Assembly (NCBI RefSeq): GCF_006345805.1
Contig: NW_021832501.1
Span: 1-40,589, forward strand
Length of the DNA stretch: 40,589 nucleotides
DNA from: Octopus sinensis
Taxonomy: Eukaryota
Direction: 5' to 3'
The position numbers and the translations under genes were made by a program. The notes under the pieces are model-generated. The model made no database searches, had not been told where the DNA came from, and saw nothing but the letters and a program-made list of their open reading frames with translations. This document shows, piece by piece, positions 1,548-39,237 of this stretch. Positions within the stretch are counted from its first letter, which is position 1. Each line of letters starts with the position of its first letter.

Positions 1548-1900
1548 TTTTTATATATATATATTATATATATATATTATACATACATATATACATACAT
1601 GTACACACAACACATATTTACGCTTGTATATATATATAATATATATATTATATCTATATTATATATAACATATAAGAAATACCGAATTTCTAAATCTCTC
1701 GTAGAGACATGTACGGTGGTGGGGGCGAGATGAGAATGGTTGTATAGTCAATCTAACACGAACGTGACAGTAGGGGGGTACACCACCGCTGTATAGCCCT
1801 AGGAAGCATCGAACGCCTCCTGATGGCTTTGACACATTTTCCCTGTGTCCTTATATACATTTACGAAGGGGAGACAAACACCCCCGCCGCCGAAGCTGCT

Positions 1901-1945
1901 ACTAGGGACACGTGTTTCAGGATCATGGTCCTTCATCGGCCTAGA
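1901..1945 (-). ncRNA. Minimal hammerhead ribozyme, inverted copy
   Basis: Reverse complement of the same motif, with one substitution in loop II and the outermost stem I pair broken. Confidence 0.72.
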
Positions 1946-1999
1946 TATATACAATTGCAAAGTCGAGACAAATATCACCAGCTGACCGGTGTCTGCTAC

Positions 2000-2044
2000 T
2001 CTAGGCCGATGAAGGACAATGATCCTGAAACACGTGTCCCTAGA
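2000..2044 (+). ncRNA. Minimal type I hammerhead ribozyme (variant core CCGAUGA)
   Basis: TCTAGG-CCGATGA-AGGA caatga TCCT-GAAA-C acgt G-TC-CCTAGA: 6-bp stem I, 4-bp stem II, short stem III with palindromic ACGT loop, GUC cleavage triplet (cut after 2038). Confidence 0.8.
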
Positions 2045-2366
2045 TGCAGCTTCGGCGGCCGGGGGTATTTGTCTCCCCTTCGTAAATGTATATAAGGACA
2101 CAGGGAAAAATATGTCAAAGCCATCAGAAGGCGTTCTATGCTTCCTAGGGCTATACAGCGGTGGTGTGCCCCCCTCTACTGTCACGTTCGTGTTAGATTG
2201 ACAGTATACAACCATTCTATCGCCCCACCACCGTACATGTCTCAACGAGAGATTTAGAAATTCAGTATTTCTTATTTTGATAATCAGTGAATAGACTTCA
2301 CTGAATTATAGATATATACAATTGCGAAGTCGAGACAAATATCACCAGCTGACCGCTGTCTGCTAC

Positions 2367-2411
2367 TCTAGGCCGATGAAGGACAATGATCCTGAAACAC
2401 GTGTCCCTAGA
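2367..2411 (+). ncRNA. Minimal type I hammerhead ribozyme, second tandem copy
   Basis: Same sequence as 2000-2044; predicted cut after 2405. Confidence 0.8.
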
Positions 2412-2679
2412 TGGAGCTTCGGCGGCCGGGGGTGTTTGTCTCCCCTTCGTAAATGTATATAAGGACACAGGGAAAAATGTGTCAAAGCCATCAGGAGGGC
2501 GTTCGATGCTTCCTAGGGCTATACAGCGGTGGTGTACCCCCCTACTGTCACGTTCGTGTTAGATTGACAGTATACAACCATTCTTATATATATTATATAT
2601 ATATAGATATATATATATAATGCGTGTTTGTAAAACTATACATATGGTAATGTAATATAACATAATAGACATGTAGACA

Positions 2680-4215: not shown

Positions 4216-4579
4216 CCTTATCTACTCTAGGCATAAGGCCCGAAATTTTGGGGGAGGGGCCACTTGATTCGATCGACCCCAGTACGCAACTGGTACTTAA
4301 CTGTCAAAGTCGACCTCGGCGGAATTTGAACTCAGAACGTAGACAGACGAAATACCTATTTCTATTTCTTTACTACCCACAAGGAGCTAAACACAGAGGA
4401 GACAAAGAAGGACAGACAGACGGATTAAGTCGATTATATCGACCCCCGTGCGTAACTGGTACTTAATTTATCGACCCCGAAAGGATGAAAGGCAGAGTCG
4501 AACTCAGAACGTAACGGCAGACGAAATATGGCTACGCATTTTGCCCGGCGTGCTAACGTTTCTGCCAGCTCGCCGCCTC
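4216..4579 (-). mobile_element. SINE family B (tRNA-like head, Deu/Nin-like core), dimeric form
   Basis: Head GGCGGCGAGCTGGCAGAA, core CCTTTCATCCTTTCGGGGTCGATAAA. Flanked by a 15-bp direct repeat ACAA(G/C)GCCAGCAATT at 4201-4215 and 4580-4594. Confidence 0.88.
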
Positions 4580-4594
4580 ACAACGCCAGCAATT

Positions 4595-4730
4595 TCGTGA
4601 GAGAAATATGTCGACTATCTCGACCTCAGTGCCAAACTGGTACTCATTTTAACGACAATAAAAGGATGAGTGACAAAATTGACCTCGGCGGAATTTGAAC
4701 TTAGAACATAAAGACAGACAACATGCTACT
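4595..4730 (-). mobile_element. Older diverged SINE family B fragment
   Basis: GACCTCGGCGGAATTTGAAC and a degenerate core matching the other family B copies. Confidence 0.7.
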
Positions 4731-8993: not shown

Positions 8994-10882
8994 CATTCGA
9001 CAGCTATCGCACTGCTTGAATCCAAAAAATATAACCTCCAACAATGCATGAAGACCCTCATCAATACCAAAGATCAGCTGAGGAGAAGTGGGCCATTGAA
9101 AAAATCAAAACCTCCAAAGTGTTCTTTTCATTTGCGAGGAAACGCAGGGTCACTGTCTCCATTGTTGGCCCTCTAATTGATGAACTGGCACTCTCCAAGA
9201 TAACGCCAAATCCATGGCCGAGATACTGCAGAAACAATACTGGTCTGTTTTCAGCAATCCTGATATGGCCGATCTGGGCTGTATCAGTGATGTCAACCCC
9301 CAACACACTATATCGGACATAACGTTTAGTGCCCCTGATGTCTTAGCGGCGATAAACGAAATAAAACACAATTCAGCAGTAGGCCCTGATAGGTTCCCTG
9401 CTTGTGTCCTGAAGGTGTGTCGACACCAACTTGCATCTCCCCTTGCTAATCTGTGGAGAAACTCACTGGATGCTGGCTATATTCCAAAAAACCTTCTGTC
9501 CCAGTCTGTTGTCCCAGTTTTCAAAAAGGGAAACAAGTCTCTTGCAGTGAATTACCGTCCGATCTCACTCACCTCTCATATCATCAAGGTATTTGAGAGG
9601 GTGGTGAGATCTCGAATAACCCAATTTCTGGAAAGCAACAGACGGCTGATCTCCAACCAACATGGGTTCCGTATGGAAGGGACTGCCTAACGCAGCTCCT
9701 GCATCACTTTGAGGACATTTTGAGAGCTTTGGGAGAGGGCTCCAACACCGATGTCATCTACCTTGATTTCAGTAAGGCCTTCGACAGGGTCCATCACAAG
9801 ATCCTATTGAAAAAACTATCCAACATTGGTGTCTCTGAAAGTTACTGAAATGGATCAAGTGTTTCCTGACAGACAGATCTCAACATGTTGTAGTTGAAGG
9901 GGTAAAATCAAGCCCAGCCAAAGTCAGTAGTGGCGTTCCGCAAGGCACTGTGCTGGGCCCACTTCTTTTCATCATTTACATTAATGACATTAATGACATC
10001 ATCAAGCACAGCAACATAAAAATCTTTGCAGATGACTCCAAGCTACAGAAGGTCATAAATGAGGCGAGTGACCGGACATGCCTTCAGTCAGATCTACTGG
10101 CTGTTATCCAATGGGCAGAAAAAAACAATATGCTGCTGAACGAGGATAAATTTGAGTTAATCCACTTTGGAAAAGAGGATGCCCTGAAACTCCCATACTC
10201 CCTTCCTTCAGGTGAAACTCTCGCGGCGTCCAACAACATCAGAGACTTGGGAGTAATTGTGGACAACCAAAGTTGACATGGCCCGCAGAATGTGTTCCTG
10301 GATTCTCAGAACTTTCCAGTCGAGAGATATCCACACTATTATCCTTCTCTTCTCCACTTTTGCCCGACCCCACCTTGAATACTGTTGTCCACTGTGGTCT
10401 CCCCACACAATACAAGGTATCATAAAAGTTGAAGCACCTCAAAGGGCAATCACAAAAAAGATAGATGGCATGACAGGCCTCGACTATTGGGGTCGACTAG
10501 AAAAGCTAAAACTCATTTCTCTCCAACATCGTCGTGAGCGCTACATCATCTGCATGATGTGGAAAATATTCCATCAGCATTGCCCAATGATGTTGGCATC
10601 ACCTTTAAGGTACATCCAAGGCTTGGGCCCCGTGCCATCCGCCCAAAACAAAAATCGCACTCTCATCTCATAACAACAATACGGCACAATTATTTCACCT
10701 CAATTGGCCCCGCTCTCTTTAACATTACACCAAAACACATTAAAACAGAAACTGACCCTATAGGGTTCAAGAAGTCTTTGGACAGATTCCTTCAAGAAAT
10801 CCCGGATAAACCCCCTACACCCGGATATGTCTCTGTAAACAATAACTCTCTACTTGAGTGGGCCATAGTGCCCAAATTCTGA
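8994..10882 (+). pseudogene. Frameshifted LINE ORF2 reverse transcriptase
   Basis: Motifs GPDRFP, VVPVFKKG, NYRPISLTS, QHGFR, DVIYLDFSKAFDRV, SGVPQGTVLGPLLFIIYINDI, FADDSKL, IRDLGVIVD, RPHLEYCCPLWSP. Frame breaks near 9190, 9675, 9840, 10268 and 10590. Confidence 0.92.
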
Positions 10883-11379: not shown

Positions 11380-12394
11380 AAAATTGTCACATGTTGCAAA
11401 AATGAATAATGAATAACTCCCTTCACAGACCATGAGACAGTGACCACTAACTTCTTAGCTTAGGGTGCAATGGTGGGTTTGGGTAGTGTTTAGGTGACTC
11501 TCCTGCATGTTCACCTGCTGCTGTCAAAAGGTATCCATTTCTCACCACAAGCAATGCTTTGATGCACAAATAGTATTTTTTCAAGTCGAGAAAGCAATAA
11601 GGAGCACACTTCGAGGCATCTGTCTTTTTTAATGTCATTCAGTTGATGTGGAACAAACCTATCTGTTTTCTTGACGTTTCCAATTTTTTTTACAGGTGTC
11701 CAAAAACACCTGTGCGTGATGTTTGGGGTTCTGATAAAAGTTTTCGAACCTTTGTTCTCGGATTTTGTTCGACCAAAGCATTTAATTCATCAGGACGAAT
11801 AACTGATTTTGGCCTACTCCTTTTCAAGGCTATCATTTCTTACACGAGAGCTTAGGAACCACTCTGAACAGTTCTGATGTTAACAAAACCATTACCACAG
11901 ATCCGCTTGTTATTCCGTAGAGCTTCTGCAGCAGAGTGACCCAGTTTGTACTCACACGAGAAAATCACTCAACATTGTTTGGTTGTTATCATTTTCATAA
12001 GGTCTGTGGGTACGAATTTTGCATACCAATATTGTTGGGAAAGAAAAAGAGTCAAAATTAAATGCAAGGTAAATATATATTTCTTTACTACCCACAAGGG
12101 GCTAAACATAGAGGGGACAAACAAGGACAGACAAAGGGATTAAGTCGATTACATCGACCCCAGTGCGTAACTGGTACTTAATTTATCGACCCCGAAAGGA
12201 TGAAAGGCAAAGTCGACCTCGGCGGAATTTGAACTCGGAACGTAACGACAGACGAAATACTGCTACGAATTTCGCCCAGCGTGCTAACGTTTCTACCAGC
12301 TCGCCGCCTTAATGCAAGGTAAATATAATTGAGTTTTTAAATGACTGAAATAACAAATAATTAAAAATGCGGCATTTCACGTGAACCAACCTAA
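11380..12394 (-). mobile_element. Decayed mariner DNA transposon (5' TIR plus N-terminal two-thirds of the transposase), interrupted by a SINE
   Basis: TA|TTAGGTTGGTTCACGTGAAATGCCGCATTTT TIR on the minus strand from 12394. Peptides VIFSCEYKLGHSAAEALRN, DELNALVEQNPRTKVRKL, DRFVPHQL (WVPHEL-like), GESPKHYPNPPLHPK and KKLVVTVSWSVKGVIHYSFL, with stops and frameshifts. Confidence 0.88.
12078..12310 (-). mobile_element. SINE family B monomer with perfect 17-bp TSD
   Basis: AATGCAAGGTAAATATA at 12061-12077 and 12311-12327. Confidence 0.92.
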
Positions 12395-16860: not shown

Positions 16861-17088
16861 GGAAAAATTATAAGTAGAACACGAAGAAGGATTTACAAGG
16901 AAGGCAGCAGAAAAGATATAGGCATGTAAACTCAAAAGCCAAAAAAACAAAAAAAAAACACGTTGTCTCTTCTGCTACTAATTTCTTCTCCGATATGAAG
17001 AATCGGCTCGAAGAATTAAGCAGGACAAAAATAGGAAATACAGAGGTAGGAGTAGGAAATGAGTAGAAATAGTTGGTGTAAAATAATC

Positions 17089-17700
17089 TTTTCTACTGTA
17101 GGCACACGGCCCGAAATTTTGGGGGAGAGGGTCAGTCGATTAGAACGACTCCATTACGCAAATGGTTCTTAATTTATCGACCCTGAAAGGATGAAAGGCA
17201 AAGTCGACCTCGGCGGAATTTGGGCCCAGAACATAAAGACAGACGAAATACCAATTTCTTTACTACCCACAAGGGGCTAAACACAGAGGGGACAAACAAG
17301 GACAGACAAACGGATTAAGTCGATTACATCGACACCAGTGCGTAACGGGTACTTATTTAATCGACCCCGAAAGGATGAAAGGCAAAATCGACCTCAGCGG
17401 AATTTAGACTCAGAACATAAAGACAGACGATATACCGCTAAGCATTTCGCCCGGTGTGCTAACGTTTCTTATTTCTTACTGCCCACAAGGGGCTACGCAC
17501 AGAGGGGGCAAACAAGGTCAGACAAACGGATTAAGTCGATTATATCAACCCCAGTGCGTAACTGGTACTTATTTAATCGACCCTGAAAGGATGAAAGGTA
17601 AAGTCGACCACGGAAGAATTTGAACTCAGAACGTAACGGCAGACGAAATACGGCAACGCATTTCGCCCGGCGTGCTAACGTTTCTGCCAGCTCGCCGCCT
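17089..17700 (-). mobile_element. SINE family B trimer under one 19-bp TSD
   Basis: Three core repeats; TAGTT(G/A)GTGTAAAATAATC at 17070-17088 and 17701-17719. Confidence 0.88.
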
Positions 17701-33682: not shown

Positions 33683-34081
33683 AAGGCGGCGAGCTGGCAG
33701 AATCGTTAAGCACGCCGGACGAAATGCGTAGCCATATTTCGTCTGCCGTTACGTTCTGACTTCAAATTCCGCCGAGGTCGACTTTACCTTTCATCCTTTT
33801 GCAGTCGATAAATTAAGTACCAGTTACGCACTGGGGTCGATGTAATCGACTTAATCAGTGTGCCTGTCCTTGTTTGTCCCCTCTGGGTTTAGCCCCTTGT
33901 GGGTAGTAAAGAAATAGGTATTTCGTCTGCCGTTACGTTCTGAGTTCAAATTCCGCCGAGGTCGACTTTGCCTTTCATCCTTTCGAGGTCGATAAAATAA
34001 GTACCAGTTGCGTACTGGGGTCGATCTAATCGACTGGCCTCCTCCCCCAAAATTTCGGGTCTTGTTCCTAGAGTAGAAAAG
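33683..34081 (+). mobile_element. SINE family B dimer
   Basis: Complete head, two cores, tail 1 then tail 2; imperfect AATATTA..AAA.TATAA flanking repeat. Confidence 0.9.
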
Positions 34082-34189
34082 AATATTACAAAATTATAAA
34101 AGGACATCGGGGTCCAGGAGGGAGAAATATAAATAAAAGGGATCTATATGCAAAAAGTGGGTAACAACCACTGAATTAAAAGGAATCTG

Positions 34190-35760: not shown

Positions 35761-36400
35761 ATTCGCCTGAGACATTAACTATTGCTGATTGCATCTTTAA
35801 TTATTAAAAGAGGCACGTGTACGTATTAACCGCGGATTTTTGACGCAATAAAAAGCTATCAAACAAAACACCATCACATAGGGGTCAGCGTTATCGCAAA
35901 GAACCACTGCAAAGAGGTTCCACAGAGGGCCATCATAAAGAATTATCGCAAAGGGGTCACTCTAATCTAAATTGTATTGTAAACTACAATCACAAAAAGG
36001 TAATAGAATCTATTCACTGCAATGATCAAGTGAATTTAGCCATTACCCCTGTACTACCATATTGAGTTGAGTGCAGTGGCTCAAACTGGTCGATGAGATT
36101 GTTTGAAATAGCAGCTAAATGTCCTTAAAATTAAACACTACCATCTTGAAAAAGAACTTATTACGGGTGCTAAAAAGTGATGTCGTATTTTCAAGCAAAT
36201 AGTTTTTGACGTCATACCACAAGAGGATCCGTATCAAACTATCAGGAATTTATCAAGGAGGTTTAATAAACTTTGGTCCACCGTGCAAGATAATTTCAAG
36301 CAGGTTGGTAAAAAATGTATAAAGTGGGGTGGGAGGACCAGAGAATCAAGGCTACATTCAGTGAAGATAACCCAAGAACAGATAAATCCATTAGCCTGAT

Positions 36401-36627
36401 AATTCGTTTGTCTGCCCTTGTTTGTCCTCTCTGTGTTCCGCCCCTTGTGGGTAGTAAAGAAATAAGTATTTCGTCTGTCTTTACGTTCTGAGTTCAAATT
36501 CCGCCGAGGTCGACTTTGCCTTTCATCCTTTCGAGGTCGATAAAATAAGTACCAATTGCGTACTGGTGTCGATCTAATCGACTGTCCCTCCCCCAAAATT
36601 TCGGGTCTTGTGTCTGGTGTAGAAAAG
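36401..36627 (+). mobile_element. 5'-truncated SINE family B dimer
   Basis: Tail 1, dimer junction, core, tail 2. Confidence 0.88.
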
Positions 36628-38927: not shown

Positions 38928-39237
38928 ATTTTTTTTTTCTAGTTTCAGCTCAGAGCTGCGGCCATGCTGATGCACCGCCGTTTTGTGCAACACTGTTATT
39001 ACGAAGAACTTCGTCTAATATGTGGCACTTGGTGAAGAATGGAGTTTGATATAGCTACTCTCATTTGCAGCTCTTGCTGTAGGTAGGTTCATCTGGGACT
39101 CTCGACAGGAAGATGTCCAGCTTTGATTTAAAAACCGCTACATCTACTTTGTGCAAGTTCCTCAGACTCTTTGGGAGAATATTAAAAAGCTGTGGTCCCT
39201 TGAAACCCAGGCTGTTGCAGAAGCTGGTCCTGAAGCG
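38928..39237 (-). mobile_element. 3' end of a second CR1-group LINE family
   Basis: [26 protein letters not shown]...[17 protein letters not shown] is homologous to GPALFNITPK...FKKSLDRFLQEIPDKP of the 9-11 kb LINE; UTR ends CATGGCCGCAGCTCTGAGCTGAAACTAG-An. Confidence 0.85.

Follow-up and report, generated by a model that had tools for sequence, protein, structure and literature searches.

Positions 1672-2586 of the window, by which we mean the whole 40,589-nucleotide stretch of Octopus sinensis contig NW_021832501.1 that was analysed, likely represent a single retrozyme insertion for which the RT/GIY-YIG protein of a Penelope-like element (PLE), probably of the Neptune type, served in trans as the copying enzyme, with a probably uncut multimeric RNA as template. 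The insertion belongs to a large and dispersed family whose copies have fixed ends, one on each side, a TA target, arms joined at microhomologies, no joined RT and a conserved hammerhead with a U4C core. The identity of the enzyme, the form of the template and the activity of the ribozyme we infer from these features. A non-coding tandem unit of retrozyme size, equipped with a type I hammerhead and mobilised in trans, had been proposed in a preliminary description of the window, and our results support this proposal.

Structure of the insertion and its hammerheads

The insertion consists of two head-to-head arms with three hammerheads and has (TA)n on both sides, into which the 3' end of each arm runs. 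Its features are listed below; unit coordinates q1-367 correspond to window positions 1942-2308.

1331-1671, no strand: left (TA)n target tract
1672-1945, minus strand: inverted arm, unit q59-334 (read from 1945 to 1672), 5'-truncated, ending at the tailed 3' site
1901-1945, minus strand: third hammerhead, core CCGATGA from 1939, predicted cut after 1907
1942-1945, no strand: 4-nt microhomology at the head-to-head arm joint (gap -4)
1942-2308, plus strand: complete 367-bp unit, q1-367
1946-2094, plus strand: predicted long imperfect stem extending helix I (about 1946-2005 with 2039-2094)
1971-1987, plus strand: site J, empty in the window copy and elsewhere holding an ORF1-only passenger with an 8-17 nt duplication
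2000-2044, plus strand: type I hammerhead 1 with U4C core, predicted cut after 2038
2221-2275, plus strand: 55-nt PLE-type 'tail' between the fixed 3' ends q279 (2220) and q334 (2275)
2309-2586, plus strand: second, partial unit (q1 to about q277/279), ending at the tail-less 3' site
2367-2411, plus strand: type I hammerhead 2, same letters as hammerhead 1, predicted cut after 2405
2585-2619, no strand: right (TA)n target tract

The preliminary description had confined the element to two adjacent copies at 1942-2584. The tandem arrangement holds, as do the identical letters of the hammerheads at 2000-2044 and 2367-2411 and their spacing of 367 bp, but the plus arm comprises only about 1.75 units, and the inverted arm with the third hammerhead had been overlooked. 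The two tandem segments (1942-2218 and 2309-2584) are 96% identical; the 367-bp pair was not reported by Tandem Repeats Finder or by a second repeat search. The absence of a credible coding sequence was borne out. The two longest ATG frames of the insertion, of 138 and 90 aa, span the inversion joint and were rejected as junction products, and the insertion is therefore regarded as non-coding. In 108 natural unit copies the longest open frame has a median of 61-65 codons. The GC content of the unit is below 50%. Four sequencing runs, presumed to be RNA, have contigs that span 28-29 of the 30 bins into which 1942-2584 was divided; ends, strand, level and circles are unreadable there, so these contigs were set aside as evidence.

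A similarity search of the 2.7-Gb genome with the unit yielded 2,059 candidate places; scores were computed for 40 of them. The 31-nt hammerhead motif has 54 exact genome matches and the tail motif 1,225, while a wider hammerhead pattern matches 397 times and a motif of a sister family 228 times, each against zero for the reversed control. The family analysis covered 258 segments from 99 loci. Sixty of these loci were taken from the initial 100 entries in the list of hammerhead matches (contigs C1-C4), minus duplicates and the last four, and the other 39 from similarity searches. The longest run among the 99 loci is about three units, and no longer genomic array was seen; locus L005, considered as the edge of a long master array, was rejected because a 100-N gap and then unrelated DNA follow.

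Mean divergence from the column majority is about 3.6%. Copies differ by 2.5-2.7% within a locus compared to 6.0% between loci, and subfamily markers are discordant in 4.3-4.9% within a locus compared to 34.9% between loci. The shared markers indicate a single source for the two arms of an insertion. The recent activity previously deduced from the similarity of the copies is thus backed to a moderate degree. The copy in the window, slightly decayed, is ordinary for the family. At locus L032 a private helix I change occurs in both hammerheads of one arm and is absent from the inverted arm; these arms may derive from separate RNA molecules or from separate units.

The sister family (L173-L202, L203-L207) is mostly 76-87% identical to the window unit. 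It shares the CCGA core, the two fixed ends and the passenger site with the window family, and its helix III is self-complementary over 10 nt. Less closely related units of about 360 bp, likewise with a hammerhead, were observed in TA tracts (L100:6440-6800, L103:5746-6290, L089:40-421 and L227:231-379), the first of them with the canonical core CTGATGA, and suggest a wider superfamily in the octopus genome. A hammerhead-like motif with a CCGA core (CCGACGA/CCGATGA) was also seen in an unrelated TA-flanked repeat (L067:3063, L216:3750-3830); U4C may be recurrent in this genome.

Hammerhead 1 has three helices around the core with helix I open, the arrangement of type I, and matches the canonical geometry set out in PMC4209133. 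Helix I (2000-2005/2039-2044) has 6 bp, helix II (2013-2016/2023-2026) has 4 bp and a 6-nt loop, the GAAA lies at 2027-2030, and helix III (2030-2031/2036-2037) has 2 bp and a palindromic loop; the predicted cut follows C2038. The motif departs from the canonical core CUGANGA-GAAA-NUH by U4C alone, as the window reads CCGAUGA in place of CUGAUGA. Position 4 is C in 144 of 151 aligned family copies, in which the remaining core positions are kept, in 93 among the 100 matches listed and in 18 of 21 sister-family rows. U4C is therefore an inherited state and not a product of decay. Natural hammerheads with this exchange occur; it reportedly causes considerably lower in vitro activity and still permits viroid infectivity (PMC3088659). 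Given U4C and the short helix III, the ribozyme is predicted to be slow.

Pairing was counted for helices I-III in 34 sequences of the family and the sister family. In helix I, 98% of cells are paired and one A-U/G-C swap occurs (21/13); helix II is paired in 85%, with one swap (23/11) and a first pair broken in 15 of the 34, and helix III in 98.5%. Each compensatory swap is probably one inherited event, and the hammerhead appears to be maintained by selection on structure. RNAalifold did not recover helix II, a search of Rfam with the whole window and with 1700-2600 returned microsatellite noise and no hammerhead match, and the isolated motif folded no better than shuffles. The 367-nt monomer from cut to cut, in contrast, has a predicted linear fold of -121.7 kcal/mol (z -4.76), equalled by none of 100 shuffles, and a predicted z of -4.71 as a circle.

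The preliminary description further assumed that the two adjacent copies form a dimeric ribozyme in cis. The three variants of helix III in the family are all self-complementary, with self-duplexes of -9.3 to -12.5 kcal/mol, and a dimer is therefore possible; folding did not predict the formation of helix III in the monomer. The cis arrangement fares less well, since in the predicted whole-locus transcript 259 of 274 bases of the inverted arm pair with the first unit and remove hammerhead 1, which would block the dimer.

Insertion ends and the candidate enzyme

The outward 3' ends of the copies fall into two fixed classes 55 nt apart, which together comprise 138 of 156 ends (62 at q273-281, 76 at q329-345 and 18 elsewhere). 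Two outward ends are present at 57 loci, of which 43 combine one end of either class, one has two q279 ends, none has two q334 ends and 13 have one end of the remaining type. (TA)4 abuts 106 of the 138 fixed ends compared to 539 of 12,000 background 20-mers (4.5%). The 5' ends are scattered and the copies 5'-truncated; no clear pile-up of 5' ends was seen where the ribozyme is predicted to cut (q90-105), and none of the 258 segments ends there. A unit border is crossed by 78 of 173 arms and two cut sites are crossed by 23, the longest arm measures 1,071 nt, and many arm joints overlap by 2-4 nt.

Comparable insertions are known from PLEs, for which 5' truncation, partial tandems, an inverted 5' copy, a tail of 30-40 bp at one end and a microsatellite bias have been described (PMC8557442). 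The tail is explained as the stretch between two internal RT start sites, both target strands being cut and extended, and hammerhead cleavage is reported to be dispensable for insertion (PMC11167929). The octopus copies exhibit two fixed 3' ends, an inverted 5'-truncated copy, a partial tandem and an AT/microsatellite target, a footprint of ends, truncation, inversion and tail that matches the published PLE 'tail' signature. By analogy, the fixed ends at 2220 and 2275 would be two internal RT start sites.

A linkage of copies to an RT + GIY-YIG ORF, which according to the preliminary description would mark a pseudo-LTR remnant and not an independent retrozyme, was not found. No RT is joined to the unit in any of 60 loci, and the window contains no RT + GIY-YIG frame near it. 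This choice turned out not to be a clean one, because the unit lacks an attached PLE body, as an independent retrozyme would, but behaves as a PLE substrate. RT fragments lie 1.6-4.4 kb from the unit in 3 of the 60 family loci. The window itself contains broken LINE reverse-transcriptase fragments at 9741-10819 and 39082-39237 that are unrelated to the hammerhead unit.

Candidate enzymes are present elsewhere in the genome. From 5,029 GIY-YIG candidates 150 were scored, and five loci picked for long frames (L093-L097) hold an intact 781-aa RT+GIY-YIG frame with a CxxxxCxxC linker, accompanied in two of the five by an intact upstream frame of 479 aa. A linker zinc finger of this type has been assigned to the Neptune and Nematis clades (PMC8557442). 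The elements (L093:1174-4874, L094-L097) show (TA)n at two 3' end sites and appear to constitute a young Neptune-type PLE family. Their terminal repeat is unlike the 367-bp unit. Nucleotide BLAST and a 108-copy profile found no unit-like pLTR in 65 stretches (54 distinct places) around GIY-YIG matches; the profile search gave four matches, and the three viewed were separate short hammerhead insertions in TA tracts. Since these 54 places contain no autonomous element with a unit-like terminal repeat, the partner is not named by sequence, and a Neptune-type PLE is a partner plausible by behaviour. With no RT joined to the unit and intact Neptune-type PLEs of the same target elsewhere in the genome, the family is most likely a non-autonomous, PLE-mobilised retrozyme.

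In the mechanism that we propose, the PLE endonuclease would nick both strands of a (TA)n tract, and each nick would prime reverse transcription at an internal position of the RNA, q279 in one case and q334 in the other. The cDNAs would extend back over variable distances, producing arms that reach about 1 kb and pass unit borders and hammerheads, and would join head-to-head via 2-4 nt of microhomology. The template would be a multimeric RNA that is mostly uncut. With the ribozyme predicted to be slow, its cut would not set the insertion ends.

The ORF1-only passenger and the nature of the template

The unit carries a passenger in 4 of the 60 loci. This 1.6-kb segment, first seen in two loci, lies inside the unit and holds a frame of about 430 aa. 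In the family and the sister family it is always located 35-38 nt upstream of the hammerhead core, at site J. Its protein has a CCHC knuckle (zf-CCHC) in 8 of 12 members and no RT; look-alikes are ZCCHC3-like (0.91-0.92), the sole database relative comes from Octopus bimaculoides, and a PDB sequence search returned knuckle-level matches only. The passenger has 30,608 candidate places in the genome, many with intact frames, and elsewhere occupies other targets. Its joints with the unit include at least four different 3' junctions and duplications of 8-17 nt. The passenger is present singly or in series of up to three copies, and the SINEs of the window have a matching 3' tail. A single ORF1-like frame, no RT and a target-site duplication characterise it as HAL1-type, and we read it, from its sequence features, as an ORF1-only, HAL1-like zinc-knuckle retroposon homing to site J. 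Template jumping at the transcription start is an alternative for its position.

The SINE-like dispersed repeat occurs in the window at 4363-4600, 12071-12285, 17082-17685, 33709-34087 and 36400-36594, with a 216-bp tandem pair at 17254-17685. At L108 and L208-L211 the passenger element also occupies a fixed site in another repeat, one that starts with 51-bp tandem units, and there it forms head-to-tail chains whose period is about 1.7 kb. More distant ORF1-only knuckle families, with an identity of about 30%, form head-to-tail chains with short shared junctions at L111:3736-6862 and L213. About 3 kb from a composite insertion, an open frame with an interleukin-17 domain (Pfam E 3.5e-11) was noted at L032:3572-4276.

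Composites of unit and passenger bear the same fixed ends as pure units and therefore moved as one piece. At five loci (L031, L032, L042, L124 and L205) a unit without the passenger and a unit with it lie in line. Such mixed arms cannot arise from a single circle, while an uncut linear multimer or a template switch can produce them. The composite copies would thus imply templates that ran through uncut hammerheads.

These observations bear on the strongest alternative, which differs from our explanation in the template only. Hammerheads would cut efficiently, alone or as dimers, the 367-nt monomer would be circularised, and a PLE RT would roll past the junction. We regard this route as a substantial possibility, though not as the one to be expected. 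The monomer folds far better than shuffles both as a linear molecule and as a circle, its size and architecture resemble the circle-making mussel retrozymes of 350-390 bp (PMC7229834), and the self-duplexes of helix III would allow dimers. The arms that cross a unit border or two cut sites also fit a circle, as do the 12 of 99 locus-private variants that tandem units have in common, although the latter do not tell circle and multimer templates apart. For pure-unit copies, a circular template explains the arms of more than one unit and the similarity within loci equally well. The U4C core, weakened in vitro though tolerated in viroids (PMC3088659), and the mixed composites, which need linear templates or a template switch, weigh against the circle and dimer account; in addition, no genomic segment ends at the cut site, and 8 of 9 Xenopus dimers assayed are reported without cleavage (bioRxiv 10.64898/2026.07.22.740005).

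An unlikely alternative holds that the unit is the pseudo-LTR of an unsampled autonomous PLE and the window locus its 5'-truncated remnant. Every insertion feature is indeed a PLE feature, just 150 of the 5,029 GIY-YIG candidates were scored, and Xenopus retrozymes resemble pLTRs (bioRxiv 10.64898/2026.07.22.740005). Nevertheless, 78 of 173 arms continue from unit to unit over the full 367-bp period with no coding body, the sole body found joined is the RT-less passenger, and the hammerhead has canonical geometry instead of the minimal PLE type. It also seems quite unlikely that a 2-6 kb composite of unit and ORF, a gag/ORF1-only PLE derivative, is the true element and the 367-bp form its deletion product. 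Composites do have PLE-type ends, the same passenger position in both families and many intact ORFs, but the ORF element is far commoner alone or in other targets (30,608 candidates) and has its own 3' tail, common to local SINEs, and the 8-17 nt duplications with at least four different tail ends are what repeated insertion into the unit predicts. The idea of a local satellite or tandem duplication whose hammerhead-like motif arose by chance, to which the missing Rfam match and the poor fold of the isolated motif might point, is largely refuted by hundreds of dispersed copies with fixed ends, a conserved core and helices, and compensatory pairs.

Returning to PLE-mediated copying of uncut multimers, a three-tier chain can be sketched as a tentative and rather doubtful extension. 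Neptune-type PLEs would move a 367-nt satellite, tuned down by U4C, via uncut multimers and with two RTs at two internal sites, while an ORF1-only retroposon would home upstream of the ribozyme, thereby switching from LINE-type to Penelope-type transport and perhaps supplying an RNA chaperone. The passenger indicates that a coding cassette of up to about 5 kb is carried by the PLE-type route.

Comparison with known systems

The class to which the octopus family belongs is already known, and a link between PLEs and retrozymes has been proposed before (PMC7229834; bioRxiv 10.64898/2026.07.22.740005). In the literature searched, largely open-access main texts without Repbase, we found no description of the octopus family, no retrozyme with a PLE tail footprint and none with an ORF1 passenger. 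In the genome paper on the giant squid, 235 hammerhead loci are listed and not analysed further.

As far as the latter are described in PMC7229834 (Cervera & de la Pena 2020), the octopus unit fits the animal non-LTR retrozymes on every tested feature but the canonical core. Both have a non-coding tandem unit within the range of 150-450 bp (here 367) with a GC content below 50%, one type I hammerhead of canonical geometry per unit and a strongly self-paired monomer, which is predicted in our case. The mussel retrozymes (350-390 bp) also share the mollusc host and co-existing autonomous PLEs. As in these retrozymes, no RT is joined to the octopus unit (0/60 loci), which forms a dispersed mobile family. 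In contrast to them, its core is fixed for U4C, and its copies are short, dispersed, inverted insertions of at most about three units and not long arrays. PLE-type fixed ends and the TA target are seen directly in the octopus, some copies have a coding passenger, and circles and cleavage are putative.

With the Neptune, Poseidon and Naiad PLEs (PMC8557442; PMC11167929; PMC4209133) the unit has in common the 5' truncation, partial tandems, inverted 5' copy, one-sided tail, AT/(TA)n target and ends away from the hammerhead cut site. Unlike the PLEs described there, it is devoid of an RT or GIY-YIG frame, its tail measures 55 nt and not 30-40, its hammerhead is a canonical type I instead of the minimal PLE variant, and it has no match to the sampled autonomous pLTRs. 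The likeness to HAL1 (half-L1, PMC5753468) is limited to the passenger, which encodes an ORF1-like protein alone, whose look-alikes are RNA-binding domains and which contains a CCHC knuckle, and which has no RT and its own 3' tail. In contrast to HAL1 as presented there, this tail is common to local SINEs, no poly(A) was seen at the junctions, and the passenger sits at fixed sites in other repeats, forms head-to-tail chains and is carried by PLE-type insertions.

The mover of animal retrozymes and the role of their cut and circle have been argued from co-occurrence and sequence trees (PMC7229834; bioRxiv 10.64898/2026.07.22.740005). Li, Clavereau and Pollet (bioRxiv 10.64898/2026.07.22.740005) consider retrozymes to be non-autonomous PLE derivatives and arrive at the same mobiliser as we do, based on co-occurrence and pLTR trees in 35 species (31 vertebrates, 3 insects and 1 anthozoan). 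The present case rests instead on an insertion footprint in a cephalopod host, without pLTR homology. The octopus family provides a direct genomic footprint, with a TA target and two fixed, presumably internal start sites that each serve one strand, and its genome also holds intact candidate enzymes. Its 367-nt unit is a short and defined substrate for an in vitro PLE assay, and the conserved U4C core makes the strength of the ribozyme a testable variable.
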